64,000 nt of DNA from NCBI RefSeq assembly GCF_964355755.1, contig NC_092675.1, positions 9,109,812 to 9,173,811 of the forward strand, read 5' to 3'. The translations under genes and the position numbers were made by a program. This document shows, piece by piece, positions 17,048 through 64,000 of the stretch. Under the pieces are notes generated by a model that was not told the DNA's origin, searched no databases, and saw only the letters and a list, made by a program, of their open reading frames with translations. This DNA is from Antedon mediterranea (Eukaryota > Animalia > Echinodermata). Position 1 is the first letter of the stretch. Each line of letters opens with the position of its first letter.

Positions 17048-18556
17048 AGTTATAGAACATAAATCCAGAGTTTTTCGGAACTAGAGTTTTATGCCATGTC
17101 TTGCGTCTGGCCAAATCAAAGGGGCTACCTGTACATAGATGTTGTGCCGCACAATAATTAATATTGCACATTGTGGCTTATGCTCCTGTGCTTGAAGGAT
17201 GACTGTTGTTGATGAAGCATTCTGGTGGTGAGAGGATGCCTTACCCATATTTTAAATAGTTGGTAATATTAATAAAATATGCAATTTTTATATTTGAATT
17301 ATCATATTGGTCCTGCCATCTTCGGTCATTAAAAATACGGGGAATGCATCTTCTCACTTACTGATTTGATGTTTGAAGTGAATGTTGAATGGGATAGTGT
17401 CAGCTCTACTCATATTGGTCATCATGTATGTGGCATCGTTGTTATTTGGTCCAAAAAAATGGCACCTAACTTTTTTTAATTCAGCAACTCAAGAATAACA
17501 AAGTTAGCCAATAAAATCTATTTTGGCACTAATATCGAGCTGGAGCTAGTTTTCCTTACATATGTGACTATCGTCGATTCAATCAGGTTTTACTTTACAT
17601 ATACATAAGCATTTTAACCGACCAATCAGAACAGGGTTATTTATTATTATTGTCTCCTGGCAAAAAAAATTATTTACCTGAAAAAAATAGTAAAATTGTC
17701 TGGTTTTGTGTTAAATTCAACGTTTTATTTTGTTTATAAGCTAAATCATCATAACCTCATTAAAACTGCAAAATAGCATATTCAAAGTCTGATTTTATAA
17801 ATCTTTACTTTTCATGATTTTGGGGGACAATACATCATTAAACTTTTGATTCTGTGTGGCTGGCTTACAAATCCTAACTTTGTTAGATTGTAATGCAATT
17901 AAATCAGAATGCTAATTGTTATTTTGCCCGAATGTATGCAACCTCCAAGGTGATCCACATAATAATTACCCTCAATTACTTGAAAGTTGATAATAACCAC
18001 GTATATATAATTATACAGGTATATATATTTACCGTAATAACGATTAGCTCACCAGAACATGCTGGCCTAGCCTTGCATGATACAGACCACTAATTGGGCG
18101 TTATACAGGCCAAATGTTGAGAACTCCTGTTAAAGGCATTAACAGTAAAATGAACAAAAGGGCTGCAGTAATAATAAACTATTAATGAATGTGATGATTG
18201 AAAAAAAAGCAAGATGATTCAATAGTATATATTGATTTATTTTTACATTTAATATACAACTTTGCATACACCTAAAATAATTCTTGACACAATCTGGACT
18301 ATTACACATAATATTTCAAAAGTTATTGGAAAGCTATGGGTCTAATTTGAAAATTGGTTAAATATAGTTACAGCAAAATAACATTGGCAGGATTACAGGC
18401 TTATAAAGGTTCTATTTCATACATATCCAACAGCAAGTAACTGTCAATTTCAGGATGAGTAAACCAAGTCTCTTTTGAGGCATGGAGGAGTAAAAACAGA
18501 GTTACATTACAATCAATTGAACCATGGAATTTTAAGGCAAGCATGGTAACCACAAG

Positions 18557-42100: not shown

Positions 42101-45100
42101 TTTTATTAAAGGGAAAACTGGATGAACAAGCACATTAATCAAGGCCTGCAGTCGGTCACATGATAATATTAAGATAAGATATAAATGAAGAATCCTAAAA
42201 GCTATATTAAACAAGATACAAAAAACTTATTTAAAATATTGTTGTTTTATTTACATTTACATTTTTCTGAATTATTATTAATTAAAATCTATCCCAACAA
42301 TTTTGTTTAGGGTTATTTTAAATGTCCAAGCAAGGTGTAAATTATAAAAAATCGGATATTTTAGGTTTTTTAACTGCATTTTTATAATGAAACCGTACTA
42401 ATAGGAATGAAAATTATTTATTATACACAAGATAAATGCAGTTTTGGGAATAGAGTGTAACCACTGCAGTAGTAAATTATTTATCCAGTAAAATAGTACA
42501 CCTCTAGGTTGATGCTATTTTTGGTATTCTACGACAATATATTGAGTGTGTTGGTCTCTGCATTGTAATGTGTATTGTGTTACAAAGTAGTAAAAGAAAA
42601 TTAAAAAAAAAAACAAGTACCCTTTGTTTTTCTCCATCCATGAATCTAAGACTAAAGTAATCCTTCTCCATGATATTTAGCTTGCTAAAAACATAGTCCA
42701 ACAGTACCTGACCTTTTGCATCTTTCTACAAAAAGGAGGGAAAAAAACATTTTCACAACCTATTATTAGTATTTATCAAACATCCATTGAGCATGCCCTA
42801 TTGATCGTCATTGATCATCAAAGATAGTCACTATTTTTTATAAATGAATGTTTAATTCAGGCCTACAGTAAAAGTAATACATCAATTTTTGTTGAAATCA
42901 TTTTATTTTACCTAACAGGTTTCAAAGAAGTACCTAGGTGTAATGTCAGGCCCGTAGCCAGGGGGGGTTTTTATGGTTCGGGCGAACCCCCCTTTACAGC
43001 GAACCCCCCTTAACCGACTGCGAACCCCCATCCCCGACATGCCCAATACCTCACCCTCATCTCCGAAAATCGTCCAAATACGTGCCCCACAGTACAAAAA
43101 GTTGTTCGTAAATTAAAAAATTCGTAAACTCGTTCGGAATAACTCATACAGTACCTTCTTCCCTGTATGAGCGTACTTCGAGCGATATAGTCTGTAAATT
43201 TCTAAGAGTTGCAAATGAATTGCCGATTTTATCAACATGATATTGACGCGTCTCACAGCGAGCTGGGGGACGAACGATTTGTACAAAGGACACCACCAGA
43301 CAACTGCGTACCAATTGTTTAGATCACTGGCAGTCAGGCAGCATGCATAAAGTATATAGCCTTCCGACATACATCAGTATTTATGTGTGGCTATGAAGTA
43401 TAATGTATCATAGAGGATTATAGTGAATATTAATATTTTACACTATAATATCTATGGTATCATGTACTGTAGTTCACATTATGGCATCCGATTATTTTTT
43501 TCTAGACCACCAGCCGATATGTACTCAAATGTATCAATATCACCTATTTACATTGGCATATTTAATTTCCTCAACAAATTGCTTTAAATAAATATTATAG
43601 ATAGAGCTATAATAAGAATTGCATTTTCCTTCACCCAGTGTGCTTTTTTCGGGGCTTCTCCTAGACGTACGTTCGCATTGAACTTGAACGCAAAACCAAA
43701 TATCGAGTAAAATGATCTAACAATCGGCGGTTCCGCACAGAGCACGCGCATCTAACATACGGCAACAAATGTTATCGTTTAAATAGTCCACGAGTCCAAG
43801 TACGATCGTTTTGCTCATTGGTAGCATGCTGCATGAGAGTGTCTTTTCCGGCCATCTAGGGGTGTCATTTAACAAAATTTGCTTCGCCGATACGTACTCA
43901 AATGTATCAATATCACCTATTTACATTGGCATATTTAATTTCCTCAACAAATTGCTGTAAATAAATATTATAGATAGAGCTATAATAAGAATTGCATTTG
44001 CCTTCACCCAGTGTGCTTTTTTCGGGGCTTCTCCTAGACGTACGTTCGCATTGAACTTGAACGCAAAACCAAATATTGAGTAAATGATCTAACAATCGGC
44101 GGTTCCGCACAGAGCACGCGCATCTAACATACGGCAACAAATGTTATCGTTTAAATAGTCCACGAGTCCAAGTACGATCGTTTTGCTCATTGGTAGCATG
44201 CTGCATGAGAGTGTCTTTTCCGGCCATCTAGGGGTGTCATTTAACAAAATTTGCTTCGCCGATACGTACTCAAATGTATCAATATCACCTATTTACATTG
44301 GCATATTTAATTTCCTCAACAAATTGCTGTAAATAAATATTATAGATAGAGCTATAATAAGAATTGCATTTTCCTTCACCCAGTGTGCTTTTTTCGGGGC
44401 TTCTCCTAGACGTACGTTCGCATTGAACTTGAACGCAAAACAAAATATTGAGTAAATGATCTAACAATCGGCGGTTCCGCACAGAGCACGCGCATCTAAC
44501 ATACGGCAACAACTGTTATCGTTTAAATAGTCCACGAGTCCAAGTACGATCGTTTTGCTCATTGGTAGCATGCTGCATGAGAGTGTCTTTTCCGGCCATC
44601 TAGGGGTGTCATTTAACAAAATTTGCTTCGCCGATACGTACTCAAATGTATCAATATTTATTGATTTATTTATTTTTTCGGGGCTTCTCCTAGACGTACG
44701 TTCGCATTGAACTTGAACGCAAAACAAAATATCGAGTAAATGATCAAACAATCGGCGGTTCCGCACAGAGCACGCGCATCTAACATACGGCAACAAATGT
44801 TATCGTTTAAATAGTCCACGAGTCCAAGTACGATCGTTTTGCTCATTGGTAGAATGCTGCATGAAAGTGTCTTTTCCGGCCATCTAGGGGTGTCATTTAA
44901 CAAAATTTGCTTCGCCTCAGGCCCACCCCAGGGGGGGGGGAGGTATGGGGGTGGGGTGACCCAAATACTTAGTGTGCGAACCCCCCCTTGACAGATCCTG
45001 GCTACAACCCTGAATGTGCTCTTACAGAATTTGTGATTGTTAAATTAGGGATGTGTAACAAATTACTGTGGTTGAGACCTGTTGCATTTTGACTAAAACA

Positions 45101-46952
45101 TGGTAGAGGCACGTGTATAATATGTTCTTAAAAAGTGAACACATAATTATGAATTGTATTATACCATATGGACAATTGTCTGATATAAAAGTTGAATTAA
45201 ATTGAATATACCCTACCAATGTATTTTCGCGCGGCTTTAGCCAGCTAAAACCCCAGGGGACATAATCAATAAAACCTGTATCAACGCGAAAGCGAGTAAA
45301 CTCGACGAATTGATAGGTCCAAGCTGCTGGACGCAAAAAAACAGCTGGGAGGGCTGAGTCTATAGTATGAGGGCTCACGGTTTAACGATTTTTTATTCTC
45401 GCCCTTTGATTGGTTGATGCGAATCAACAGACTACCGTTGTCTCTGAGGACTGCTGAATGTCCTGGCATGTCCAACACACATCAGGAAAATAATATATTA
45501 AAATTCTTTGAATGAGGCTAAATAAACACTCTTTTTATTTAATAAATGCAGCTTCCACTAAAACTAACAAATTCGGCATTCCCATTTTATGTAAATGGTA
45601 ATGTTTTTTCTATATAAAATAAAAGCTATACATTTTAAAGTAAAACTGGTGTAGGGCTACGTATCAGTCGGCAAATGAGATTGTTTTTAATGTATCGAAA
45701 AGCGGGCAATCCTGCCGGGAAAGCAGTTGGTATGTATTGTATAATGCTTAATTTAGGCTAGTGTCTTACCGTAGTAATCATTCACAACAAGTAGCTGATA
45801 AATACCAAGTATTTATAAGAGACATTAGTTTTAATGTTTTGATTTGTCCACTATATTCTATTATGCGTATTATACTTTTTTTATTTCTGCATATTATTAT
45901 TTAATAACCCAAACAAGGCTCATTAAAGCATAATATTTCCCTTTTTTTTCAATTGTATTTGTTTCATTTTAACCACTTGAGTTTATAACAAACAAGTTAC
46001 CGGTATCTGTTTGACAGTGAGGGTATGGATTGATAGGCGCGGCACAGCAAAAATGTCCTAAGTTGTTATCGATATAAATAACAAAGTATTAATACTGGTA
46101 AATAATTTCTAAAATATCTAAAGTAATTTCGAACATTTAAATAATACAATTTGCAAAATAAAACGAAAACCCCAAAACCACTTTATTTTCAAAAAGCACA
46201 CATACTTCTTCGCACTTGTAAAATAAATTGAGGGAAAAAATGTATTAGGTTAATAAAAATTCAAAGTGCAACGTTTGCTGAAAATATTAATATATTATTA
46301 TTCACTGTAGTGATGGCGATGTGCACACCAGAAATATCACTGCTGTTTCTGGAATTGAAGACCGCCAATTCGGCTTCATAATACAGACGTATTACTATTT
46401 AGTAAAATATTAACATTTTAACACACATGGCGTGTCATACATATTCAAGAATAATTACAATTCTGGCGGCCAAAATGAACAATTCAATACATGTTTTGTC
46501 CTTTTTGGCGTTTAATGAATTTGGCAATTCCATAACCGGCGGCCGAAATGATCAGACACCCTACTAGGTCGTCTATCTATAATATAAGACTAGCCGGCGA
46601 GGCCTATTAAGTATAGGCCTACTACCTATAGGCCTAGCCTACTAGCCCTACACGCTACTAGCCTAGCCTACCTACTAGCTAGGGCATACTAGCTAGTACT
46701 ATACTACTCATAGGCTAACCAGTCCAGGATAGGTGGTAGAGGACTCTAGGCTAATAATAAGGAGTAGGGAGACCGGCCGGGAGACCTGGGCTCGTTGGGG
46801 GAGGGGTTGCTTTGCACTCTACCTAGCTAGGCTACTCTGACCATACTGACACTCTGACAGGCTCTGTTTGAGTACGTACGTACCTCAAAAACGCATACGA
46901 GAGGCTCGATTTGCTCTTCAAGGCGTCGAATTTTACACTGATATCGATTCAT
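21124..46952 (-). CDS. FRMD5: FERM domain-containing protein, FRMD3/FRMD5-like (FERM + FERM-adjacent + C-terminal TM helix), 12 exons, 563 aa
   Basis: Exons 46952-46884, 42725-42621, 36471-36429, 25853-25677, 25296-25179, 24939-24852, 24492-24340, 23908-23820, 22777-22706, 22446-22378, 22075-21996, 21752-21124, all GT-AG, summing to 1692 nt. Motifs: KDAKGQVLLDYVF, EKDYFSLRF, HWIDP, FRVKTYP, LQLCRDLQHGRL, TYGVDPHPV, KHLWKCAVDHQSFF, RFRFSGRT, and a hydrophobic helix followed by VRDF...YYTPLK as in FRMD3/5. Probably a single pro-ortholog of FRMD3 and FRMD5. Confidence 0.88.
22880..23230 (+). mobile_element. 3' end of a Rex1/L2-group LINE
   Basis: DPTHPLH...SGIRLRPPRANLCRTRKSFV C-terminal motif, a 3'UTR, AATAAA and a (CTTGAAT)n tail. 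Confidence 0.6.
27512..28885 (+). mobile_element. 5'-truncated CR1/Jockey-group LINE with uninterrupted 428-aa RT ORF (27579-28865)
   Basis: NYRPISLL, QHGF, DFSKAFD, GVPQGSILGP, FADD motifs and an (AAATA)n tail; antisense within FRMD intron 3. Confidence 0.93.
29632..30490. repeat. ~81-87-bp minisatellite, ~10 copies
   Basis: Unit ...TATGCATCTTGGGGTAGGGACGTCACTCCACTAAGGTCATAATGACCCGCA...; a related single copy lies at 29281-29320. Confidence 0.95.
32050..35704 (-). pseudogene. Decayed THAP-domain P-element/THAP9-type transposase
   Basis: THAP start MSHSHCSAINC (ATG 35704, frameshifted); THAP C-terminal exon SNHF...LNFNAIPTIFDFPN (~34740-34860); core LCVIAFDEMSL...FYDESNDRIEGFEDYG (32452-32769); YITGYL (32370-32603). 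Stops, frameshifts and internal deletion are present, and termini were not located. Confidence 0.8.
33606..34520. repeat. 31-bp minisatellite (GAGTATAGTATTCATTGTGTATTAAAGTAAT)
   Basis: About 28 tandem copies inside the THAP transposon remnant. Confidence 0.95.
36842..41150 (-). mobile_element. L2-clade LINE (endonuclease + RT, disrupted), interrupted by a nested LINE
   Basis: APE motifs (IAIYRPP, VGDFNIH, GHTLDL, SDH) at 40420-40838; RT at 37226-38224 (LLDYSAAFD, GVPQGS, YADD); C-terminus RAFAVAAPKLWNTLP; L2-type 3' end (AGCGCTTTGA...GCGCTTATAAAT) with (TATT)n tail. The 5' boundary is approximate. Confidence 0.88.
38554..39832 (-). mobile_element. 5'-truncated LINE (CR1-group, YVDD RT) nested in the L2 element
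   Basis: VDFRKAFD, GVPQGTKLGP, RWKYVDD, IRPVTEYACPVW; tail (GAATACGAAT)n; ATTAGT duplicated at 38548-38553 and 39833-39838. Confidence 0.85.
42947..45012. mobile_element. Non-autonomous hAT5-like element with internal 372-bp tandem repeats
   Basis: Termini CAGGCCCGTAGCCAGG / CCTGGCTACAACCCTG with AATGT on both flanks; subterminal CGAACCCCC motifs. Confidence 0.78.
43514..44916. repeat. 372-bp tandem repeat, ~4 copies (last one internally deleted)
   Basis: ORFs 43913 and 44285 are near-identical at a 372-bp offset. Confidence 0.95.
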
Positions 46953-47675
46953 TTTTTTAAATAAACCATCATCAGGTTAGAGAAATAGAATTGACGTTGT
47001 GTAGACCTAGGCCTACCGACAAGCAAAAATGATAAAAAGCCATAAAAAAAAACAATCTCAATATGTCTTAAACAGATGATATCCAAAACACAAATCGTCT
47101 TTTCTCGGGAGACACATCTTGTGTCACACCGCACGCGACCGTCAAAATAATATCGCACGATATTCTCTCGTCGTATGCAAATTAGATTAAGTTATTTGCA
47201 CGTTTAACCCTATATCTTTATTATTTTGTGGAAATGTGCATAGTTTATTTGGCCTACGTTGAAGTTCCGGTGGTCGTTGAAATAACCACTTGCTTTCGGT
47301 ATAGGAGAAGAAGGGATTTGGGAAAACATAAGGTAAGCGTTATATGGGCACCAGTCGTGCAGGTTATGAATATTAATGAGGAGGTACTATTTGAATATTC
47401 ATTTGTCAAAACCCAGCAGACCAAGACGATTCTCAGCCTGCAGCTTCTCGATTCCGTAGGCTTACACAGTACAGTTACTAATAAATTCTAGACTATGGGA
47501 TAGTTAACTATTATGTAACTATAATTAGCATAATGATGGTTTAGGGTTTAGTAATTTTTATTGATGACATTACGAAATATTGAATCCATAATTTACAATG
47601 GCGTGTATTTATGTAAAACAAATATAAATGACCCACCAATTGTTTTCACATTCAGAACTGCAGATATAGGACACA

Positions 47676-47852
47676 CAGGGAATAATTTCGCCAGTGTAGC
47701 ATAGCAAAAAGCTATACAAAACAACCTTTTTGCTACACGTATTTCTACAATTGTGTAGCAAAAAATACAATACAAAACTATGTTTCTTGACTAAAAAATC
47801 AGTTTGATTAGCAATTTTGCTAAACAAAATTTTCAAATGAAATTTTTCCCTG
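47676..47852. mobile_element. 177-bp MITE inserted in the left TIR, 5-bp TSD ACACA
   Basis: Absent from the matching position of the right TIR (~60212-60225). TIRs CAGGGAATAATTTC/GAAATTTTTCCCTG; same family as 15516-15690. Confidence 0.92.
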
Positions 47853-47919
47853 ACACATAATTACTTCGTACAAGAATGGTGCCCAAAACTATATTATGAG
47901 ATATATGTACACATTATTA

Positions 47920-48602
47920 AATGCACGGCTGGTGCCCATCTGCAGCACTGGTATAATATTAACTATTTAACATCAGAATCAGATAGATATAAAAATGCAC
48001 GGCTGGTGCCCATTGCAGCACTGGTGCCCATATAAACTCTTTAACATTAGATAGATATAAACATGCACGGCCGGTGCCCATCTGCAGCAATGGTGCCCAT
48101 TTTAACTCTTTAACATTGGATAGATATAAAAATGCACGACTGGTGCCCACCTGCAGCACTGGTGCCCGTATTAACTCTTTAACATTAGATAGATATAAAC
48201 ATGCACGGCTGGTGCCCATCTGCAGCAATGGTGCCCATTTTAACTCTTTAACATTGGATAGATATAAAAATGCACGACTGGTGCCCACCTGCAGCACTGG
48301 TGCCCGTATTAACTCTTTAACATTAGATAGATATAAACATGCACGGCTGGTGCCCATCTGCAGCACTGGTGCCCGTATTAACTCTTTAGCATTAGATAGA
48401 TATAAACATGCACGGATGGTGCCCATCTGCAGCACTGGTGCCCGTATATAACTCTTTAACATTATAGATATGAACATGCACGGATGGTGCCCATCTGCAG
48501 CACTGGTGCCCGTATTAACTCTTTAACATTAGATAGATATAAACATGCACAGCTGGTGCCCATCTGCAGCAATGGTGCCCATTTTAACTCTTTAACATTA
48601 GA
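47920..48602. repeat. 69-bp subterminal tandem array of the left TIR
   Basis: Unit AACATTAGATAGATATAAACATGCACGGCTGGTGCCCATCTGCAGCACTGGTGCCCGTATTAACTCTTT, ~9 copies, with alternating variants. Confidence 0.95.
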
Positions 48603-49081
48603 CTCTTTTTTTTTTAACTTTTAAACAATTGATAGATATACAAATGCATGTACACAGTATACTAGACTCATTCAATTTAATTAATTAAATTCTTTTAATT
48701 GAGACGTAATGTAAGTCCATATTTATAGAAAACAAAACAAGAAAGTACAAAATAAATGAAAGTTATAATAAAGCCTGTAAAACAAAAGGACTAGTAACAT
48801 ATTTCTTTCTCAAATTACATTTTAGAAATCGGAGAAACAACATTTGCAAATACACATATATATGCATATATTTATTAATATGTAGTTATGCAGGGTGGAG
48901 ATGGGTAAGGTGCCCGGCCTAAAATTCATTCACCCAGTTTGATTTCATTTGAAGGCCTTCCACCCAGCTGAATTTCAGCCTAGCACAGTTTAAGTACTTT
49001 TAGGCATATGTAAAATTGAGGTTCCACTGTACTGTATTTGTATATCATTAGTATTAATTTGATCAATAAGTAACTTGATAC

Positions 49082-52000
49082 TTATTCATATTGGGCTGTA
49101 CATATTGGACAAACGTAGCCACCTCGTGGTCTTGATTTTACATTAACACATTTAAAGTGACACCATCGGCCACATACATCGCACGCAACCCAATCTGCTG
49201 GCAACTTTGGCTTCATACAACCAACAATATCACACAGTCTCCGCTGTGATTTAGGCTTCAGGGAGGATTGCAAAAATTTTGCTAGAACATATTTCCTCAT
49301 GGCAAGTGCATGAGCCTGGCCCAGACTGGTTGGTAATATGTTCCGACTTAAAGCAAGAGCATTCTGAAAATAAATAAAAAATTCAGTACATTTCAAAATA
49401 TTTTATAATATTTATATTACATTTAATATATACATTAGAGCACATGAGTAGTGACTATTATTTCTTACCAACATGACAAATGCTCCGCAGGAACTTCCAT
49501 CACTTTGCTTTCCTGATAGTAATTGTGTGTCATGTATCCATTGATCTTTTAACTCACCAGTTGCATCACTACGACATCTCATGTATTCTCTGTAGTGAAC
49601 AAACCAAAAAGGTATGTACAGTGTTAAACTCAAACATTGAACTCTATGTGAATTTCTGTTTTTCTAAACAAATTAAAACACCAACCTGAACTTATTAATA
49701 TAGATTGAGTTGTCTCTTCCAGGCAAGGAGTCTAACAATGAAACCCTCATAGTGGGAACATAAGCAGCCAGGAGTATCCAATGATTTTGGTTAATGTTAA
49801 TTGGAAGAAAAATCCAAGAAAACTTGACCAACTTAACCTAATGTTTAAAAAATAACAATTTTAAATAATGATAAAAACCAAAATTGATTCAAGTGTGAAG
49901 GTTAGCTAACACTAGAGCATATTGAAGCTTATGTGGGTACTAAAAACAGTTAATAATTATTTACTAGGGACAATACTGTTTATGAAAATGCACTAATAAT
50001 AAACTAACCTTCTTGAACAACCAGGGGGCTAAACTATCCACACTCCATTGAACAGCTACATAAGATGGCATTATGAAAATGTGACCATGGTCTTCTGTGT
50101 TTGTTTCTCTTTTTAGCAAATGCAAGTAAGCATTTATTACCTAATTTTGGATAAACAAAATGATAAAAATATTGAATGGCTGATATTATTTTTCAAAAAT
50201 TTTCTTTTTAAAGCACTTATTTATGTGTATTTATTTGAGGCTATGAAATTAAATATCATAACAGAGAATCAGTACTATTGTTGCATAGTAACTGATAAAA
50301 TGAGTTTATAGTTAACAGTATAGTAATCAATTCTTATTAAAGTAAATTTTTCTTAGAAATGATCCTTTTTGTCATATGTGTAGAAAAATTAAAACAAGTT
50401 TTGTTTAGGTGTGTTAAAGGACTTACTTTGTCATTTAACCAATTTGGATGAACTAAACACTTGAAGTCATCATGCTCTATTACATCTCCTCCAACATGAT
50501 ACCTCACTTTCTTGCTTTTAGGTACATCAACATTTTTTTCGGATGTTAGCTCAACTAAAAGTGTGTCTGTATTAAATGAAACAATGTTTCTATAACAGTC
50601 ATAATAAGAACATTCAGTAACCGTTAACAGTAAAAATTAAAAATTATTAATTATTATAACATTATATTAATAACATTATATCATCAACACTTTTTTTAAT
50701 CTTACTCAACTGGGAGTATGTCTGTAATACTGTGAAATAAACATAACATTTTAACAACAACAACAAACAAATCAATATCATAAAAACTTGCCTTTCTTGT
50801 TATTGGAAAGAAATGTTTGGCTAGCAAAAGAAATCGCTTTCTCTTTCTTCTGTGGTGATATTTTAGGCTTGTATGAATCAACTTCAGGTGCTGTAAATTG
50901 TAAATGTTATATATGTAAAATATCTCTTCGTGAATTAATATACTAAAAAGATTAAAAAAGGATGAAGGTAATTTCTCACTACATACAGATCTTTTTTAAT
51001 GTACTTTAAAATTAACAAAATAAAAACATGCCTCTCTTATTATCAATCTATGCCTGAAAGTTTGATCACAATTAAAATATTAATATATAAATAAATCACT
51101 ACTATTTCTTTTTCCAAAACTCTCCTACTTTTGTAGGAAAGGCCTCTATACCATTATGATTTACACAAAAAATATAGCAGAATTAATATTTAATTTAACT
51201 TGTGTATACTTTATATTTTTTTTCCGTATTTATTATTATACAATGTGAAAAGTCATAGTCATAGTCATATAGTCATATATACTTTATTGTCCATTTAAAA
51301 AAACAGAAATGTGATTTGAAAACTGGCAAAATACAAAGAAAGGTATTTGACAATAATATTATTATTTATTGGGTGCAAGGCTTTACCTGAATGCACAGGT
51401 GATTGCATTTCCGTATCTTGTTCAGAAGGTGAACAGGGAGCTGGAAATCATAAAAATAAAATGTGACATACACATAATAAGAGTATCATCTTGATTTTGA
51501 ATACATTTCCATACAATTTGAGTACTATATAATCAAATATTACAAAGTAATACAGATGGCAGATGAAAATACTGTATAACAGGGCTCAAATTTTACTTTT
51601 GTATCAACTACCAAACATTTGCTAGTTGTAAAAATCTAACTAGCAAATTGAGCAACCCAACTAGCAAGTAAGATAAGGAAAATTAATCTATCTCTGGTCC
51701 CTCTACACATTCATAAAATGGTTTGCTTCAAATATACATACATACATACATTCAACATAAAATAGCTGACTAAATATAGAAATCTTTTTTTGTAATAAAT
51801 ACTTAATAGTAAGTTATATAATGTGATTTATGATAAGTACCTTTAAAATATCCATCAATCTTTGTGTTTACTAAATTCACTTTTCTGAAACCTCTTCTGG
51901 TCATTTTCTTTTTTTTCTTAATGACAGGTAATTCTCGATGTTGAGGACTCTTTCTCTTTCGCTCAAACAGTTTTGGCTCTGCATCAGGAATTAAGCCTTC

Positions 52001-55000
52001 TTCATTGCTTAAATGCTGCCTGATATACTCTACGGTGTTTAGTATTTTCTTTTCCATTTTCCTTAAGATTTCTTCTTCTTTGCACAGATAAGTCATGTCT
52101 CGTAGGAGAAGTAGTTTCTCTCTACAAGAAGCAGCTACTTGTTTTGCAAAAGAAGGTCTTAGAGGCAAGCTGCTATCATCAGGGGGTAAATGACACTCTT
52201 CTATTTCATGTTCTAGAATTACCTTTTCAGGTTCTCCTAGAAAGGTTCCAACTAACTTATCAAGCGTGTGAAGTGGAGATTCACGAAGACTTTCGGGAAG
52301 ACTTTCCCAAGTCACATCTTCTATGTAAGTGAGAATTGAAAAAATATGTTTACATGGCATTCTCAACTTCAACCAATCTATACACTCACACACTGACATT
52401 GCACTCGGCGACATGTCTACTAAGTAACTTGATTGTCCTTGCAGACTTTGACTTTTCACCTGTAAATAAAAGAATATTAAACACAATTTAAAATTGTTTC
52501 TTTTTCTATATTTTCCCATAAATATTAATATTTTTACAATTTTAAATACTTATGTAGTTTTTGAAAGCAAGTTCTATCCAAACTTTTTAGCAACTGACAT
52601 CTATTCCATTTTTTTATAAAATAATCATATATAGAATATCATAAATTATTTTTATTTAATAAATCAATAAATTAAATACAAAATAGATAGTTGTGGGTTT
52701 ATTAATCATTTAAATGCAAAGTTGCAATCAAATAGAAGTAATCTGCAGATCATATAAAAACCACTCTTTTACCTTAAATTTATCCTTATCTATTCTTGTG
52801 ATGTCCTTTGATAATATTTCTTGAGATGACTCGAAACGTGATAAGCAATGGCTAAGAAAAGCAGGAGGCCTGTTTTGAAGATAGTGCGGAACCTCTTGTT
52901 TGTATGTCCGACCATAAGTATCATCAGCCTTTACATTCGCTGTGATGTATCTGATAACAAAAAATTATGTATGAACTGTACCATTAACTTTTAAATAATA
53001 TTTATGCTAACCAATAAAAAATGTAATTAACCTTACGGTAGATGAACATTTCTGTACAATAAACTATTCTTAGAGCCGCAAGAAATGAACCCAAATCCCT
53101 TTACTTTAATTGAGGGGTTTTAGTACTGTAAAAAACAAAACACAATTAACACAACGGTACCAAAATTTATTAAAATATTTTAAAATATGACTTTATACCG
53201 TACTTCATTTTTCTGCTAGGCAGGTATTCATTGTGAAGAGCTGATATCATGCCAGAAATTGAAAATGAGGCTCGGTCTACTAAAAACTTGTGTTTAAATA
53301 CTCGATTTTGCCGCTCAAGACCATTGTTGGTATGTGCCTGTAGACCTTGGTCTTTTCGGTAGGACCATGCCCAGAGCTAAAAGTAAAAATTTAAGTAAAT
53401 TATCATCTATAGAGTTTATGCAATATATTTTCTTTAATAAATTAGAAAATTACTCACCTCGCAATGTGGCAGCCATTTTTTGGATAACCATTGCTGAAGT
53501 CGGCAGTTTTTTTTCCAAACCTCCGACATTTTTAATGTGTTTACAGCTTTTTTGTACGCAAGAACCGTTGTAGCATGAGCACAGCGTCGTAAGTGAGCAA
53601 GAATCTGGTCCTTGGACTTTGTAACGCCATTATCAGTCTTGCTCACCCAACGGATCCAGGCTTGCTCCCGATGAAAGTCGCATATGTAAGTTTTTGTTTC
53701 TAGTGATAAAGGAAAGTGTAAATAAATCTCTGAAAACAATGAAAGTTCTAGCATACAATTGTAGAAAAATAATTAAAAAAAAATCAATATAACAAACAAT
53801 AAATTACCAGGAAACAGTTCCTTGATAGCTGAGAGCTCCCTTTCACAGAAGTCTGTTAAGAAATTGGTGGGGTTCCAGCTAAGATTTGCCTGTTGCATAA
53901 ATTGTTTGATTGTAGACAGACCCTCAAGAATGGCTGCTTTGGTTTCCATCTGAACAACAAATTCACCAACCACACTGTAACCAACATTTGTTTTTACTGC
54001 CAAAAAGAACAATGGCAAGGCATATCGTGTGGTCTTATAGGTAGCATCAAGAAAACACAAGTTTGTTCCATATCTAAAGTAACATAAATATAATAAATAA
54101 TAAAAGAACAGTGAAACCATAAAAAATATGAGGGTGATGTAAAACATAATAATTGCCTTTATTGTCATCTTGGTTGTCAAAATATATCTGTCCCAAAGCT
54201 TCAATCACAAGAAAACAAATAACCTACCGGTTTAAAAGATGCCTCTGAAATTCTGTTTGATGAGCGAAAAAGAAAGCAGATGAACTTTGCGATGATTCAG
54301 CAGGAATCAATTCATCATCATCTTCATTAACATAAAACTCCTTTGTGGGCTCAGCAGAAGCAAGCCTTAAAAAGTAGTTATCTAATGGATGTTGCTTCTG
54401 CCACTCCTCCATTTGTTGTTTCAGGTTCTCCTGATCTAGCTTTGAATACCTAAAAAAGGTTAGAACATTGGTACATAACTTAAAAGTAACAACATTTTTC
54501 GGTTTTATAAATGAATAAGTTTATAGGAAACAAAAAGGTACTGTACAGTAATAGGTAGCAAACCAAAATGTGCACCCTGGTAGACACAGCAGAGATTTTC
54601 AATAATTCCCCATAAATGTTTTCTACTGTATATATATATTTTGTAAGAGTAGAGCAACAATATAATTATGGTTTTATAAGCTGTACATATAAAAAACAAA
54701 CCTTAATGCCATTAAAGAAGTGTAAATATGGTTTCTCAATGTCTGGTCCTGCGGGTAGTAGGCTGTATTTGTCACAGCAGGACGAGTTTCTGCATCCGGA
54801 AACAATACTGTTTCCACATATATTTTTAAATGCCTCCTCATCTCCTCTGTACCGTTTACACCATGGCTGACCAATTCATGAATTTTGTCCTTTATTCCTT
54901 TATTTATTGGATTTAAAAATCCAGCAAGCTAAAAGAGTTTTAATAGTTTAGGAATCTCATATAAAAACCATTATAGTTTAAGTAAACATATTATAAACTT

Positions 55001-58000
55001 TAATTGTTTTAAAATAATTTACTTTTCACAATTTCACAATAAATGATCCATTCATCAAAATTAAGGACTTCAGAACATCACTGCTAATCCTGGTGTTGTA
55101 GTACGCCAAATGAGAACATAATGTTTTGTACATCTGCTGTGCCTTATATGAACTTACAAAAATTGAAAGTTTAAGTACTTAAACAAAATTATTTTGTTGT
55201 TGTTTTTTGTTAAACTGAGAATCAGCTTTTAAAAATAAATGCATTGCTATTAACAAATCTATTTACCGTGCCAATTTTGTGAAAACTGTTATGTTCCTGA
55301 TCTGATGGTAGAGATACATAGATTCTTCTCTCTGCCTTTAGGTCTGCACCACTTTTAACAGCCTTCCTAAGCGCTTGACTTTTCTCGTCACAAACACACC
55401 TGTTCTGTGAAACTGACTATAAGAAGTAACAACAAAGAAATCAATCACTTATAAATAATCATAACATTATGATTTTTATTTATGTTTACCTAACACAGTG
55501 ATTAAAAAACTTAAAAATAACAATAATAATAATAAAAATATTAATAATACAAATAATAATAACAACATAGACATAAAATAATTATTATTTTTGTTTTAAA
55601 GAAATTAATAATTACTAGATGGTACGCTCGCTTCGCTCGCGTACCATCTAGGTCGTGCCCACAGATGGTTCTCGAATACATAGTAATTTCAGCATAAAAA
55701 AACGGTGATTTATGTAGCCAACTAAAATTAGTACCCTGGCAATTACTTGAGTAAACAAAACCAATTTGTGTTTTGTAATGTAACATTAGGGTTGAAGGAT
55801 GGTAAGAGGGTGGGTGCAAAGAGGAACCATTTTTTAAATATATTCTTTATCCGTAACGACATATTTGTTTTTATGTTTTATAAATAATAAACCACTAAAC
55901 ATTTGCGATACTTTATTGAAACTGTCACTGTCATAGTCGATTGAAATAGTTAAGTACATGTAATTGTAACAATACACCACTATGACTTTTATATTCTTTG
56001 TAATTATTAATAATACTATTAAGAAGCAACTGTCAGTATTAAAGTTTAATTATGTGTTTAAACAGTACCACCACACTCGTAAAAAGAAATTGTGCTTTAA
56101 ATGGGACACAAATGGTTTATGTATTTAATGTAAAAGGTTTTTAATTTATCCCCGAAGGGCACGTAAATTTACCGTAAATTTGCCTACTTGTGTTATACCA
56201 AATGTGGGGAGAGATTGGAATGTTCCATTCATCGCCAAGCAATCCTTTTGTATAAACGCATATTTTAAATCTATCAAAATAGTATTTTTTAAAGAAAATC
56301 GGCCTGTCTTCAACATTATGATGCTGTACTCGAGCTGTTCAACCGGTTTTCAGCTATTAAAAACAATTATCCTAGGAGGAGATAGGAAAATGCAAAGCAT
56401 CCTCGTATTATTGTGTGCGGGTATTTTTTAAGACGGATATCCATTAGACAGTGTATTCCACGATCGGAAAACACCCCTATTTGGGGCAAATCGTTGAACC
56501 TAAATTCGTTTTAATTGTCAATAACTAATTATCTAACTCAATTTAATTAGTAAACAGGGTTACATCAGGTGGTTAAAATCAGTAACGAAAGTACGAACCA
56601 ACTTTATATACCATCGACTAAAAATTCTAGAAATAACGCACAATTTACCGAATTTTGCCCTTACATAAATTTATATATAGATTTTAAAATAGAAAATTTG
56701 AAGTTTAATTTAATTAATGCAAATAAAAAAATACAAAGTAATTGCTTTTTAAAATGCATTTATGTTTACCGTAAATAAATAGAAAATAAAATAAATAGAC
56801 AATGCAGCTATTACAAACATTAAAATCTCAATGTCAGATTTAAAGTAAGGTACTGTAAACAAAATTGTAAAACTGTGAATTGTTAATAGTATTTTAATTT
56901 AAATTTACCTTAAATTCTGGAAATCTAATAATTTCCTTTAATTTTAGTTTTGCTGGGCAGCCTTTCTTTTTGGAACATTGCATCCTCCTTCTTCTCTTCT
57001 TTCCTGTTGGATGGTCACTCTATTATCAAGATTAACAAAATACAGATTGATAATTATATATCGATATTATAAAAATGAAATACTTCATTAGGGGTCAGAA
57101 TTAATTACTTACAGCATATGTATACACTATATTTAAAAATCATAAAATGTACTGTATGGATACCTTGAGTTCATTTTCACGGTTATCTGCTTCTTTTTCT
57201 TGAGCACATCTGTGCTTATTTCGTCCATACATACACCCTAACGTATATGATGCTGTTATCATGAAAGGAACTCCATCAAAATCTATACCATCTTTCCTGC
57301 CTGAAAATCTTACCAAGTGTGATGCAATACCTTTGGAATGTAATATAGAAAAGGCATGTTAAGTATTAGTATTTTGTATTCCTAAATTACAAAGGGTTGT
57401 CAATTCAGTGAAATGTTTGTCTAAATATTCGTACTGTACCTTCCTAAGTTTGCCTGACAAGATAGCCAACCCTAGGCCTATCTATAGATAATTTTTTTTA
57501 AACCATATAAACATAAAAAAAAGTTGTACATCTATCCGATTTTGCACACAATAAGAAAGTTAGTTAATTATTAGGTTTTGGTATCTTAGGGAGGATGGGG
57601 TGGGGTGTGACAGCAAACAAAACACACTGATTTTAATATAACAGTAGGCCTCTAGGCCTAGGCCTATATTATATACTTTTTTTCCCCAATCATTAGGGTG
57701 CTAGGGAGAGAACAATACAACTTTTCTTGATATGTGACATTTTTTGAATTGAAAGTTTCATATAAAATTGAAAATTCACTAGGCCTAGATCTAGTAGTAC
57801 TAGGTAGTAGGTCTATCCTAGTCTGGTCCCCTTTTTACAGTAGGCCTAGGATAGTAGATCATGCAAGGTATTGTCGAAATAAATCAAAATGCTCATTCAA
57901 GGTATTGTCGTAATAAATCAAAATGCTCATTCATATTGTGTCGAAATATATCCCAACATGATGCCATAAATGTATATTTATGGTTTACTTTCTTAAACAA

Positions 58001-58356
58001 CGAATAAAGGGGCTAGGCTAACCTGGTGCAGATGAGGTATTGATAAGACCAATTTCGCCAATTTCAACGTTGTCCTCCTGCTCTTCTACGCCGTTGGTAG
58101 TACAATAGGCATTGGCCTGAGGCGGAAGCGGAGAAAACTTTATTTTTCCGAAGTCTCCCTTCTTGTTTCCAACGAAATGTAATGACTTCGCATTTTCGAA
58201 TACGTTTCGTAGCTCTTCACAATCTGATAAACCACAAACCCATCCTTTTAAATAGTTTTCAGACGGAGAATTTAGAAATTTTGCCCACAATGGCAAACAA
58301 TTTGTGTCAACTGACATGTTTTCAGACTCACACAATACACACGCCACACATTTCAT
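49082..58356 (-). CDS. MULE transposase fusion protein: CARF-like N-terminus + MULE DDE + SWIM + Ulp1/C48 protease + PHD finger; 19 exons, ~1220 aa
   Basis: Exons 58356-58023, 57300-57164, 57019-56909, 55416-55267, 54928-54702, 54449-54228, 54073-53808, 53699-53458, 53376-53204, 52950-52773, 52459-51841, 51440-51387, 50890-50792 (GC donor), 50729-50706, 50566-50427, 50140-50009, 49837-49686, 49589-49469, 49363-49082. Phases are consistent (3663 nt) and no internal stop was seen. Motifs: FLDATYKT, LTDFCERE, CDFH, TNNGLERQN (DDE + CxxH); CECIDWLKLRMPCKH (SWIM); WLNDKVIN, NHWILL, LLDSL, QSDGSSCG (Ulp1); CDIVGC...WVACDVCGRWCHFKC...CPIC (PHD). Confidence 0.9.
55615..56681 (-). mobile_element. Non-autonomous Helitron-like element in transposase intron 3
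   Basis: The minus strand begins A|TCTATATATAA and ends CTAG|T; a 3' hairpin CTAGATGGTACGC-(11 nt)-GCGTACCATCTAG lies at 55615-55651. Confidence 0.65.
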
Positions 58357-58416
58357 AACTTCCCGCGAATCGCTGTATCAGGTTCCAATAATGAATATTC
58401 AACACGTCTGCTGTAA

Positions 58417-58693
58417 AGCCTAGGTTCCATAAAATCGCTACACGCGACAGAGCGTAGCGATTCTATTGAAACGCTAGAATTTATCGGGGATCTAGTACGC
58501 GAGAGCGCTAAATATTCTTTGGTACGCGTATTATTATACGATTCATCGCCGACAAAATCGGCAAAGTAAAGTTGAACATGTTGAACTTTGCTGATTTAAC
58601 TGCGATTGCGTCGGGGACATCTGCGCGTGTAGCGATTTTAATGGAAACGCGGTAGCGATGGTGTGACGTGTAGCGATTTTATGGAAACCGGCT
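58417..58693. mobile_element. Harbinger-like MITE just upstream of the transposase ATG
   Basis: TIRs AGCCTAGGTTCCATAAAATCGCTACACG / CGTGTAGCGATTTTATGGAAACCGGCT, with TAA on both flanks. Confidence 0.7.
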
Positions 58694-58980
58694 TAAATGC
58701 GCGCCAGTGCTGCGCAGTGTTGGCAACCGTCACGTCACGCGCATTTCATGCGCAGTGGAATTTTTTAGTGAGCTATCTGCTCACGTTCGGCGCACACTTG
58801 AGAGGAAAATGGCACGAGTGCCAATAAATATTAAACACGATAGATATTTTCCTCAGCGGCACGCATGGCTGATTCCTCATGAATTCCCCAGCGCACACTG
58901 TGAGGCTAGCCAAGTGTTACTCGTGCCTGTTGGCTCAGCCGGAAGCTTTAGTGTGCGCCGGGCTCAATATAATAAGGGCA

Positions 58981-60142
58981 GTTAATACGGGCACCAGTAC
59001 AGCCATGCATGTTTATATCTATCTAATGTTAAAGAGTTAATACGGGCACCAGTGCTGCAGATGGGCACCAGCCGTGCATGTTTATATCTGTTATATCTGT
59101 TATGCGCGATTTGAACGATTTGCGCAATTTGAAATTGCGCAAAAAATTTCTTGCGCACTTTGAATTGAAACATGTGTTTCAAATTGCGCAAGCAACGTAT
59201 TAAATTGCGCAAGTAATCTGCAAATTGCGCAAGGTTTTTCGACAGATTGTGAAATCATGCACACCCATATTTTTTTAGTAATTTCTAAGAGTGATTCAAA
59301 ATTAAAGATAATATCGCATTTCCTTACCCTCCCGGGAGCCTCCCTCCCGAATTTTTTTTTCCGAATAAAAAAAATCTCGAATTCCCAATGGTTCTATAAA
59401 ATACCATATTCACACATAATATGAGGAGAAGGCATAAATAAATACCAATAGTAATATAATAATTTCAATTGAAATATCAGTACTAATGACGATTAATAAG
59501 ACTAATAACGATTGCATGTTTATATCTATCTAATGTTAAAGAGTTAATACGGGCACCAGTGCTGCAGGTGGGCACCAGTCGTGCATTTTTATATCTATCC
59601 AATGTTAAAGAGTTAAAATGGGCACCATTGCTGCAGATGGGCACCAGCCGTGCATGTTTATATCTATCTAATGTTAAAGAGTTAATACGGGCACCAGTGC
59701 TGCAGGTGGGCACCAGTCGTGCATTTTTATATCTATCCAATGTTAAAGAGTTAAAACGGGCACCATTGCTGCAGATGGGCACCAGCCGTGCATGTTTATA
59801 TCTATCTAATGTTAAAGAGTTAATACGGGCACCAGTGCTGCAGATGGGCACCAGCCGTGCATGGTTATATCTATCCAATGTTAAAGAGTTAAAATGGGCA
59901 CCATTGCTGCAGATGGGCACCAGCCGTGCATGTTTATATCTATCTAATGTTAAAGAGTTAATACGGGCACCAGTGCTGCAGATGGGCACCAGCCGTGCAT
60001 GGTTATATCTATCTAATGTTAAAAAGTTAATACGGGCACCAGTGCTGCAGGTGGGCACCAGCCGTGCATTTTTATATCTATCTGATTCTGATGTTAAATA
60101 GTTAATATTATACCAGTGCTGCAGATGGGCACCAGCCGTGCA
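58981..60142. repeat. 69-bp subterminal tandem array of the right TIR, interrupted at ~59091-59512
   Basis: Reverse-complement copies of the 47920-48602 unit at 58981-59090 and 59513-60142. Confidence 0.93.
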
Positions 60143-60859
60143 TTTAATAATGTGTACATATATCTCATAATATAGTTTATATGGGCACCATTCTTGTACG
60201 AAGTAACATATTTATGTGTCCTATATCTGCAGTTCTGAATGTGAAAACAATTGGTGGGTCATTTATATTTGTTTTACATAAATACACGCCATCGTAAATT
60301 ATGGATTCAATGTTTCGTAATGTCATCAATAAAAATTACTAGTTAAAACCCTAAACCATCATTATGCTAATTATAGTTACGTAATAGTTAATAACTATCC
60401 CATAGTCTAGAATTTATTAGTAACTGTAAGCCTACGGAATCGAAGCTGCAGGCTGAATCGTCTTGGTCTGCTGGGTTTTGATAAATGAATATTCAAATAG
60501 TACCTCCTCATTAATATTCATAACCTGCACGACTGGTGCCCATATAACGCTTACCGAAAACATAAACGGTAATCTCTTCTTCCTCGGTCACATTTGCCTC
60601 ATTTTAATATATGTCACGCGCTAGGCTGAACAACACTCTCAAGAATAATAAACAGTTGATTAGGTCATACTATAAAACTGGGATTTAAGTTATAAGCAAA
60701 AATATCCTCCAGGGTGGATTTAAAATGCAGTTTTAAAACGCAGCCTGTGTTAAAAATTTGGGATTTTTCAGATTCCATTTTGGCCCCCATTATTGGTTCA
60801 AAGAAGGCGAATAATTTTTCAATTCCCACTTCTAGTGAAAATTTTAGTATGGTTTTTTT

Positions 60860-63163
60860 GGTTCTAGGACACCTACCCCCTAGACAGTTACCCCCCGGAT
60901 GTTTACCACCCGGACAACTACCCCCTTAGGACAACTACCCCCCGGACAACTACCCCCCGGACAACTACCCTCTTAGGACAACTACCCCCTTAGGATAACA
61001 ACCCCCCGGACAACTACCCCCCGGACAACCACCCCCTTAGGACAACCACCCCCTTAGGATAACTACCCCCCGGGTAACTACCCCCCGGGTAACTACCCCC
61101 CGGGTAACTACCCCCGGTCAACTAACCCCCGGTCATCATCTGTTTTTTACGGGTGTTTCGAAACTAGAGACCCGAGACCAGAGACCTGACACGAGACCCA
61201 ATACGAAAAGGGTCTCCCTTTTCGTATATTAGGGTCTCCCTTTTCGTATAGTGTGGTCTCTCTTTTCGTATAGTGGGGTCTCCCTTTTCTTAACTTATAG
61301 TGGGTCTCCCTTTTCGTATATTTGGGTCTCCCATTTTGTATATTTGGGTCTCCCTTTTCGTATATTTGGGTCTCCCTTTTCGTATATTTAGGTCTCCCCT
61401 TTCGTATATTAGGGTCTCCATTTTCGTATAGTGGGGTCTCCCTTTTCGTATAGTGGGGTCTCCCTTTTCGTACGTGAGTCTCCCTTTTCGTATATATAGG
61501 CAAAGAATATATATCACAAGAATGAGTATTCCGCGATTTTTGCATGAGAAATTTGTAACAGAGAGCTCCAGAGAGTGATGCCCGCCCTCATAAGGGCGGA
61601 TGTATACATACTAAATAAGACTTGATTTAATAGATATTATACATGTCACATTAAATAGAATTATGATAATATATTTTGCAATTGTAAACTATTTTATAAT
61701 ACATATTTATTAACAAACTAGTGTACATTCACTTTTACAGACAATTATTTACTAACATGCTAAGTTAGTTCACAAAAAAAGCCTAACACAGCAACACCAA
61801 AATCAACGAATCGTTACTCAGCACGGCCTATTCTATACCATTGCCGTGTACTACTCTACGCCCGGTAAATTAAGTATTGTTTTTATGATATAAATTAGTA
61901 TAAAATACATGTTATTAATAGGACAAAATGTTAAATATCATTAACATTTATTTGTTTTACCAGAAACAAGTTAAATATAGGAATATTATTAAACTATCGT
62001 TCGTGAAAACGCGTAAACACCAACACGCCCGGTCACGCTATCGTAGCGCCCGGTTGATAAAGCAAACTGTTTATACGGCAGATTTTACTAAATAAATTGC
62101 ATAAAACGAACAATTAAATATCCAAATAGTATTTAATATGATGTTGGCATGTAGTTGATAACATTTTTTATCATGAAAATACTACCGGTGGTCTAGCCTT
62201 TGATTATTGAAACCGTCACAAAAAGTTGTATACATCCCAGATACATCCACACTTATGGTGGCGCCCTACCACATGGACAATATTACTGTTACAGGGAAAA
62301 TCGCGGATTACTCATTCTTGTGATATATATTCTTTGATATAGGTCTCCCTTTTCGTATTGGGTCTCGGGTCTCTGGTCTCTGGTCTCGGGTCTCTAGTTT
62401 CGAAACACCCGTTTTTAACCGATTATTCTGTTTAACAGCACGCTAGACCCTAGATGTGCTAGATTTAAAGTACCGTATTTATTGAAAAAACGGCCTGGGC
62501 TGTTTATTGTTTAGGTGGTTTTTAGGTGGACATTTATTGGAAGAAAGTTGTTTATTCAATGGGAGGGGGTATAATCTAATGGAAATAGACGCCGATTATT
62601 CCATATGATGTTTCATGGGAGTGACATGGTCACCGTTTATTTGAGGGGAATTTATTTAAAGATTGCCGTTTATTCGGTGAGTGAACATTGAGGTCAAATA
62701 TCAAAAGTGATATTATTCTTCAAGTGTACAAAAATACATATATGACAAATTTTAGACAAAAATTAATTCTTTTAAGACCAGTGGTTATCGAAGCATTGTC
62801 CTGACCCAAAAATTATTATTATTATTAGCGAACCCAGTCTTTACAGTAAATACAGGGAGTATAATACGTTCGACTATCCTATGATCATGTGTGACAATCT
62901 TCAGTTTATATACCAGGCTATATTTATGTTCAATCTTTTACTTTTGTTTACAATAATGAATAGTAATTCGTCAAAGTAACGAATTAAAATATAGTTAAAT
63001 ATATAGGTATATTAGTTATTCCTATTATACACTGTTGCAGAGTCAGGTTGTTGAATGGTCTGGGTGGTAGTTGTCCGTCCGGGGGGTAGTTGTTCTAAAG
63101 GGATAGTTGTCTGGGTGGTAGTTGTCCAGGGGTTAGTTGTCCTACGGAGGTAGTTGTCCTAAA
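60860..63163. mobile_element. Non-autonomous DNA transposon with inverted GGACAACTACCCCC subterminal microrepeats
   Basis: (GGACAACTACCCCC)n at 60866-61133 and inverted (GGGTAGTTGTCC)n at 63062-63160. The right terminus is degenerate and no TSD was resolved. Confidence 0.6.
61151..62410. mobile_element. Non-autonomous MULE/Foldback-like element nested in the preceding element
   Basis: TIRs GGGTGTTTCGAAACTAGAGACCCGAGACCAGAGACC; second inverted block 61501-61540 vs 62297-62337; 9-bp flanks GTTTTTTAC/GTTTTTAAC; internal 21-22-bp array (GGGTCTCCCTTTTCGTATA..) at 61209-61497. Confidence 0.8.
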
Positions 63164-64000
63164 AGATTATTTGCCCTCTAGTTAGGGTTAAAAACGTCAT
63201 TTTTGAACCAAACCTGGAAAAAATTATTTACAAAGGATTTTTATCATCAAACTTAACATATAAGTCCCAGGGGTCACCAAAAAAAAGTTCTAGTGATTTT
63301 CTCTATGGGGGAAGGAGTTATGACCTTTTATATAAAGGTCAATCTATTTTTAGTAACGAGTTAGTACTTCGTTAACCACACAGTGTAGATGCTTAATTTT
63401 AGTCTCAAATTGTTCGCAATGTACAATTTCCTATTTGCAATAATGGAATATTTTTCTAAAAAATTACCAGCAATGCTATTTCTGACCTTTGACCTTTCTT
63501 GACCGGAAGTTTCATAGCTACATAAGTATTTGACCTAGAGAGTTGGTTTTGGTCTTAATTTGTTTATAATGTACAACTTTATATTTGCAGTAATGACACA
63601 TTTTTCTATAAAGCAAGTAGAAATACCATTTATTGACCGTTGAACCCAATTAACCAATATTATTCAATTATTATTAATAATATAATTCAAGTATTAACAC
63701 CGCCACCACATGGCTGTACATAGGCTAAACTTTTTGACCAATCAGGAAGCGCCATCTAGCAGGCTACATTTCAAATGTTTGTTAGAAAGAGTGCAGCAAG
63801 AGCATATCAAATGCAATTTTGGTAAGCATAAATAGTATATATAGCAGAAACTGGTTCTTATACAACTGAAGACCTATGTGAAATAATGAGAGAGTTATCA
63901 GATGATGGGAGTATTAGTGATTTCTTTTACAGTTCAAAGTATTTGAAAAAACTACTTCTTGAAGAGTTTGGTAATGAGATTTACTTTTCTAGTGAAAAGG

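Follow-up and report, generated by a model that had tools for sequence, protein, structure and literature searches.

A coding-intact foldback Mutator-like element in the feather star Antedon mediterranea, with a transposase predicted to carry a Ulp1-type protease and a PHD finger

Mutator elements from hydra, lancelet, and plants have been described with Ulp1 proteases, for which a role in transposition was proposed (Bao et al. 2010; PMC2836005), and the Ulp1 and PHD domains of Ginger1 and Mutator transposases are aligned in the same work (Fig. 1e legend, PMC2836005). Among Mutator-like elements (MULEs), a zinc DNA-binding N-terminus of the WRKY-GCM1 kind and a C-terminal SWIM are typical, the PHD finger being a C-terminal add-on (PMC1702500). 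Rehavkus elements are listed with a PHD finger, a minisatellite by the terminal inverted repeat (TIR), a 9-bp target-site duplication (TSD), and TIRs of 26-412 bp (PMC6446971), and have been called foldback elements (10.1101/2024.12.02.626372). In Muta1 of Aedes aegypti, D214, D283, H307, W401, and E419 are required for transposition (PMC5499845; PMC5225508), and subterminal repeats boost transposase binding, cleavage, and excision (PMC5499845). In this study, we examined 64,000 nucleotides of the crinoid (feather star) Antedon mediterranea (NC_092675.1, positions 9,109,812 to 9,173,811; hereafter the window, in whose numbering all coordinates are given) containing a foldback MULE. The Antedon element is a well-built, coding-intact specimen of a known animal Mutator kind, and its architecture is not new. 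Our findings support, with high confidence, a complete low-copy foldback MULE whose single predicted protein would bind a motif in the element ends, move the element by cut and paste, creating a 10-bp TSD, and likely strip SUMO from silencing proteins.

The ends of the element (table 1) are sharply defined. The TSD GAAAACATAA lies on both sides of 47332-60555, only a length of 10 among the lengths 1-19 giving a match, and the first 40 bases at either terminus are exact inverse complements; the exact termini and perfect 10-bp TSD proposed in an earlier sequence-only reading of this DNA are thus borne out, as are its TIRs above 1 kb with 69-bp arrays, since the alignment gives TIRs of ~1.04-1.24 kb and the arrays hold 9.8 and 9.1 copies. 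The difference in length between the left (~1.24 kb) and right (~1.04 kb) TIR is a single 177-bp insertion. MULE TSDs range from 8 to 11 bp (Table 1 of PMC6446971), and arthropod MULE TIRs reach 1193 bp (PMC13359780); a TSD of 10 bp and TIRs longer than 1 kb agree with a Mutator assignment, and long TIRs holding tandem subterminal repeats with a foldback one. An 18-mer close to the left terminus, searched over the window with up to 3 mismatches, has 20 matches on each strand, every one within TIR or array regions (besides the terminal copy, one at the other terminus and 38 more); it occurs about twice per 69-bp unit, pointing the other way from the terminal copy at its own end, and has no match in the element interior (48611-58970) or in the remainder of the window. 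This 18-mer is likely the transposase-binding site, and the arrays would, on this reading, consist of multiplied binding sites.

Spliced on the minus strand from 58317 to 49082, 19 exons give 3669 nt and 1222 amino acids, and exact translation, the check named in the sequence-only reading for stops or frameshifts, yields one stop only, at the end. Of the introns, 17/18 are GT-AG and 1/18 is GC-AG. Exon 7 matches the Antedon RefSeq protein XP_071952734.1 (P0001) at 100%, and from residue 271 on this protein and the 19-exon model agree (98.6% over 952 columns), down to the same GC donor. A sea urchin protein, Lytechinus P0004 (XP_041460625), aligns in one piece to residues 19-1222 with 42% identity, which supports exons 1-4 as part of the same single protein. 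With the ends, the open spliced reading frame (ORF), the domains below, and this alignment, a foldback MULE encoding one protein is upheld.

Of the 16 exons scanned against Pfam, 8 gave one of ALS2CR8, MULE, SWIM, C48, or PHD. Matches above cut-off were obtained for ALS2CR8 in exons 2, 3, and 5, MULE in exon 7 (PF10551, E 1.7e-11), Peptidase_C48 in exon 17, and PHD in exon 19. SWIM in exon 11 scored below its cut-off (15.2 vs 19.6), with the CxC..CxH ligands C701, C703, C713, and H715 present; hence, in the CARF-like/DDE/SWIM/Ulp1/PHD protein that had been proposed, four domains are supported by Pfam and SWIM by its ligands, not by its score. The DDE core with CxxH and the full Ulp1 His/Asp/Cys triad had been read correctly. 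The MULE core displays D400, D465, C486xxH489, W562, and E581, and over 62 aligned relatives the D/D/C/H/E residues are conserved in 62/61/58/60/59, respectively, and the tryptophan in 60/62. The protease retains H1057, D1074, the oxyanion glutamine Q1117, and C1123. In sequence, it is closest among solved structures to yeast Ulp1 (E 6e-12) and human SENP5, SENP1, and SENP2, and the WLND, HW, DS, and Q..CG motifs line up with yeast Ulp1. In a Foldseek search with a fold model (predicted local distance difference test, pLDDT, 82), Ulp1/SENP entries filled the top 25 ranks (best E 1e-11), followed by a NEDD8 protease (E 4e-8), and the core matched the ISCth4 transposase (E 3e-6), which we take to be an IS256-family relative of MULEs. 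At the N-terminus, the ALS2CR8 domain has conserved C131, C175, H233, and H237, a pattern that would fit a WRKY-GCM1 finger. The fold model of this domain from a fish relative (P0357) returned weak matches only: none at E 0.001 in Foldseek and none at Z 8 in VIA-align (best Z 5.9), with AFT2 at Z 4.8 (root-mean-square deviation 2.9, 74 aligned) and transposase or homeodomain helices against its helical part at Z ~4-6. A search of Rfam gave 0 matches.

The same architecture occurs elsewhere. ALS2CR8-MULE-SWIM-C48-PHD, in this order and all above Pfam cut-offs, is found in P0004 of Lytechinus variegatus and in P0149 (XP_078489944) of Ciona intestinalis, Ulp1 and PHD tails on Mutator transposases are published (PMC2836005), and so are the PHD finger and minisatellite-bearing foldback ends of Rehavkus (PMC6446971; 10.1101/2024.12.02.626372); the leaning of the sequence-only reading toward a novel five-domain architecture is accordingly not supported. 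The exact five-domain order was not found in the literature, Repbase and most subscription journals lying outside the search. Among 64 proteins found with P0004 (precomputed Pfam, 19 chosen ones rescanned), ALS2CR8 is present in 53, C48 in 16, and ALS2CR8 together with MULE and C48 in 12; a PHD on top of these three is seen in 3/64 by precomputed Pfam (the query P0004, P0137, and P0149). The members with C48 belong to sea urchins, sea cucumbers, bivalves, Ciona, Hydra, and a loach, and are scattered over the DDE tree (a quick tree of 61/62 rows, P0182 dropped). In two MULE relatives, P0167 and P0192, a UCH domain stands in place of C48. A wider search of a library clustered at 50% yielded 304 proteins with E of 1e-30 or lower.

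Like the arrays and TIRs, the interior of the element has received later insertions (table 1). The 177-bp miniature inverted-repeat transposable element (MITE) of the left TIR has a second window copy at 15516-15690 (97.7%) and a part at 9437-9548, and contigs of X1, X7, and X8 lack it at the left TIR. With its TC start and hairpin-CTAG end, which we take to be Helitron-like features, the intron-3 insertion at 55614-56682 is probably a non-autonomous Helitron-like element; an X5 contig (organism B) that matches 51762-55084 at 97% is without it, with 190 letters in place of the 1,597 of the window. All five nested repeats lie outside exons, unremarkable at a coding share of 0.28. The "apparently intact" of the sequence-only reading holds for the ORF and the ends, not for the whole DNA. 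TIR contigs are ~4x as deep as the flank contig in X1 (814 vs 217) and ~6x as deep as the internal contig in X5 (295 vs 47), a depth that is no copy number; together with the 97% internal copy in organism B, it fits a low-copy family with several ends. No loose end at 47332 was seen among the matches listed for contigs of four runs, and the X5 and X7 contigs do not cover the flank 46950-47301, which has no weight by itself.

Several points weigh against our reading of the element. The RefSeq protein XP_071952734.1 starts in exon 5, without exons 1-4, and omits the 16-bp exon 14, joining exon 13 to a later acceptor. The exon total is consequently 18 or 19, the linker around exon 14 being disordered; of the 19 phase-consistent exons and ~1220 residues first proposed, the stop-free 1222 residues stand, and exon 14 is doubtful. 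The splice model rests on genomic sequence, and contigs of X8, guessed to be RNA, lie in or across introns with no splice joint among the matches listed. The nested insertions and private left-TIR changes (e.g., 47405 and 47597, relative to the compared contigs) indicate that this copy is not freshly inserted, and neither another insertion site nor an empty one appeared directly among the matches listed for contigs of four runs at the left end. The complete HW..D/NS..Q..CG motif is present in only 13/62 relatives, many of them partial models, and the protease tail may therefore be dispensable. Moreover, no published functional test of a Ulp1-type tail on a transposase was found.

How might such a protein act? 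By analogy with Muta1 (PMC5499845), the N-terminal zinc or helical domain would bind the terminus and arrays cooperatively, and the DDE core, with CxxH and W562, would make double-strand breaks with flank hairpins and join the ends to target DNA. The Ulp1-type tail would remove SUMO from silencing proteins at the bound chromatin, and the PHD would tether the protein to histone tails or guide insertion toward open gene starts, the FERM 5′ region described below being an example. Judged from its sequence and fold-model matches, the C48 domain probably acts on SUMO, with moderate confidence over action on NEDD8 or ubiquitin or self-processing, and for the tail, countering silencing through deSUMOylation is the likeliest function. 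For the PHD, tethering or steering is conceivable, at somewhat less than even odds; the single insertion site near the FERM gene says nothing about steering.

The protease might instead serve the element's own protein, cutting a polyprotein or removing SUMO or ubiquitin-like marks from the transposase. A disordered linker of ~100 residues (pLDDT <50, P0001 560-656) separates transposase and tail in the fold model, polyprotein processing has been proposed for OTU-fused MULEs (PMC1702500), and the replacement of C48 by UCH in P0167 and P0192 points the same way; yet among structures SUMO isopeptidases come nearest, the motifs align with those of yeast Ulp1, and no cleavage site was identified, so that self-processing appears a minority possibility, about one chance in four in our judgment. 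Membership in the Rehavkus group proper is unlikely. The Antedon element fits the published description in its foldback TIRs with subterminal tandem repeats, its PHD and minisatellite by the TIR, its one ORF, and a length within 9-18 kb, but its TSD is 10 bp rather than 9 bp, SWIM and ALS2CR8 are unlisted for Rehavkus, no named Tribolium, Nasonia, Drosophila, or Helobdella relative is among the matches listed (most of which are unnamed), and the relatives span cnidarians, molluscs, echinoderms, aphid, spider, and stick insect, closer to the host range of Ghost/MuDR-1_NV. Also very unlikely is a relic at the start of the FERM gene, immobile or domesticated, with an ORF preserved for some host function: the ORF is open despite nested insertions and TIR indels, it is annotated as a gene in RefSeq, and the X1 contig runs continuously from flank into TIR, but TSD and termini are perfect, the TIRs near-identical, with contigs at several times the depth of the flank contig, the five insertions missing exons are unremarkable at that coding share, and the 6 listed exonic differences (3 silent, 3 not) are too few to show selection.

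A complete low-copy foldback MULE thus remains our preferred reading, and its tail and N-terminus raise questions beyond the single copy. Identity to P0001 differs between DDE core and protease (39%/52% in Apostichopus P0143, 60%/46% in Lytechinus P0004, and 47%/27% in Ciona P0149), and the two trees disagree. By the approximately unbiased (AU) test, a topology uniting P0143, P0146, and P0334 is not rejected (p 0.075, from a quick tree with long branches), and a module swap between MULE lineages, considered because the trees differ, was not retained. Antedon has another protein, P0285 (XP_071950565.1), in which the protease is 44% identical, the PHD weak, and a MULE core missing; both its features (0.95; KDZ in 27% of members) and its predicted structure liken its N-terminus to KDZ/HMG-domain-protein-3 clusters. 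Since P0285 pairs the tail with a KDZ/Zisupton-like N-terminus, it suggests that the Ulp1-PHD tail moves between transposon families, a fusion in the gene model being possible. Separately, in the P0296 cluster (Argopecten irradians), one gene model joins the same protease type to an amine oxidase. Regarding the N-terminus, P0124, P0357, and P0182, from oyster, fish, and clam, are annotated "calcium-responsive transcription factor" or "-like"; as all three are parts of transposases of this family, CaRF annotations in invertebrates probably include fragments of transposons. Literature tying the CaRF/ALS2CR8 domain to transposases or to this MULE lineage was not found, within the same bounds of the search (Repbase and most subscription journals outside it). 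We put forward, tentatively and as a reading with about three chances in ten, a widespread, undescribed animal MULE lineage whose CaRF/ALS2CR8 module binds the element ends and is the likely source of vertebrate CaRF, and whose Ulp1-PHD cassette counters silencing and is exchanged with other transposon types, a KDZ/Zisupton-like element of the Antedon genome among them.

The element lies next to a host gene with FERM domains on the minus strand (window 21127-46952; FERM_N, _M, and _C at 42.7, 25.9, and 24.5 kb), whose last exon carries a hydrophobic stretch. Its left end is 380 bp upstream of the candidate ATG of this gene, in CpG-rich DNA (observed/expected 1.22 vs 0.70 for the window), and it may influence the promoter or 5′ untranslated region; MULE insertion close to genes is typical (PMC5225508). 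Elsewhere in the window we observed remnants of long interspersed nuclear element (LINE)-type reverse transcriptases at 27564-28862 (+), 36807-40970 (-), and 16335-17080 (RVT_1 at 27564-28862 and 38860-40509), a THAP/P-like transposase fragment on the minus strand (32455-33075, TNP-like_RNaseH_N), and tandem arrays at 6031-8299, 33605-34443, and 43513-44916 (36, 31, and 372/284 bp units). Another inverted, repeat-rich element (60867-63176) stands to the right of the MULE, with arms near 60862-61132 and 63058-63176.

Table 1. Features of the foldback MULE and its borders, in window coordinates
Feature	Position	Strand	Evidence
Candidate first coding exon of host FERM gene	46884..46952	-	exon search
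Left TSD GAAAACATAA, 10 bp	47322..47331	+	end comparison
Whole foldback MULE, 13,224 bp	47332..60555		ends, TSD, TIR alignment
Left TIR (gene 3′ end), ~1.24 kb, nested MITE included	47332..48570		TIR alignment
Terminal 18-mer, candidate transposase-binding site	47344..47361	+	motif recurrence in ends
Nested 177-bp high-copy MITE (CAGGG..CCCTG) in left TIR	47676..47852		repeat match, contigs
69-bp subterminal tandem array, 9.8 copies	47921..48602		tandem repeat
Exon 19: protease domain end, PHD finger, stop	49082..49363	-	splicing, Pfam
Exons 15-18: Ulp1/C48 protease domain	49469..50589	-	splicing, Pfam, structure matches
Exons 12-14: disordered linker; GC donor in exon 13; exon 14 (50721-50706) doubtful	50706..51440	-	splicing, fold model
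Exon 11: SWIM finger and helical region	51841..52459	-	splicing, Pfam
Exons 6-10: MULE catalytic core	52773..54449	-	splicing, Pfam, alignment
Exons 1-5: N-terminus and ALS2CR8/CaRF-type domain (58317-58023, 57330-57164, 57019-56909, 55416-55267, 54928-54702)	54702..58317	-	splicing, Pfam
Nested 1.07-kb very high-copy element in intron 3, TC start, hairpin-CTAG end	55614..56682	-	repeat depth, ends
High-copy short repeat, inverted arms, upstream of ATG	58412..58742		repeat
~418 bp breaking right-hand array, inferred insertion	59095..59512		array gap
Right TIR, ~1.04 kb; extra array units at 58980-59094	59513..60555		TIR alignment
69-bp subterminal tandem array, 9.1 copies	59513..60143		tandem repeat
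Right TSD GAAAACATAA	60556..60565	+	end comparison

Taken singly, the Antedon element is ordinary; what it raises is a family-level question, given the frequency of CaRF/ALS2CR8 in its relatives (53/64). If the lineage proposed above is real, the Antedon copy would be a complete and testable example of a transposase that lifts SUMO-dependent silencing in its own chromatin. Publications from 2006-2010 onward have noted SUMO-type proteases borne by transposons and suggested that they act in transposition; with defined ends, a candidate binding motif, and intact triads, the complete Antedon element gives direct access to the question of protease function. Zisupton/KDZ and plant Kaonashi elements also carry Ulp1 cargo, and Zisupton has a SWIM; Zisupton belongs to the KDZ transposase family and Kaonashi is a separate plant gene, whereas the Antedon element has a Pfam MULE core. 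The same domain order as in the Antedon protein is seen in XP_041460625 and XP_078489944, both annotated as uncharacterized and known from the protein alone. Compared by description, the hydra and lancelet MuDR families likewise have a Mutator transposase fused to a C-terminal Ulp1 (PMC2836005). Ghost/MuDR-1_NV are SWIM-bearing animal MULEs of cnidarians, aphids, and spiders, a host range overlapping that of the Antedon relatives, but were originally described without a complete element, TIR, or TSD (PMC6446971); none of the listed Ghost accessions is among the named relatives in the matches listed. Rehavkus is likewise large and has a single ORF, a PHD finger, and foldback ends that hold subterminal tandem repeats; on the other hand, its TSD (9 vs 10 bp) and TIRs (26-412 bp vs >1 kb) are shorter, SWIM and Ulp1 are not among its listed features, and it is treated as an outgroup to MULEs, with arthropods and an annelid as known hosts. 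Muta1, finally, is a foldback MULE with subterminal repeats whose D214-D283-H307-W401-E419 corresponds to D400-D465-H489-W562-E581 in Antedon; it differs, as described, in its FLYWCH DNA-binding domain, its 3.2-kb length, its 8-9-bp TSD, and in having neither protease nor PHD.

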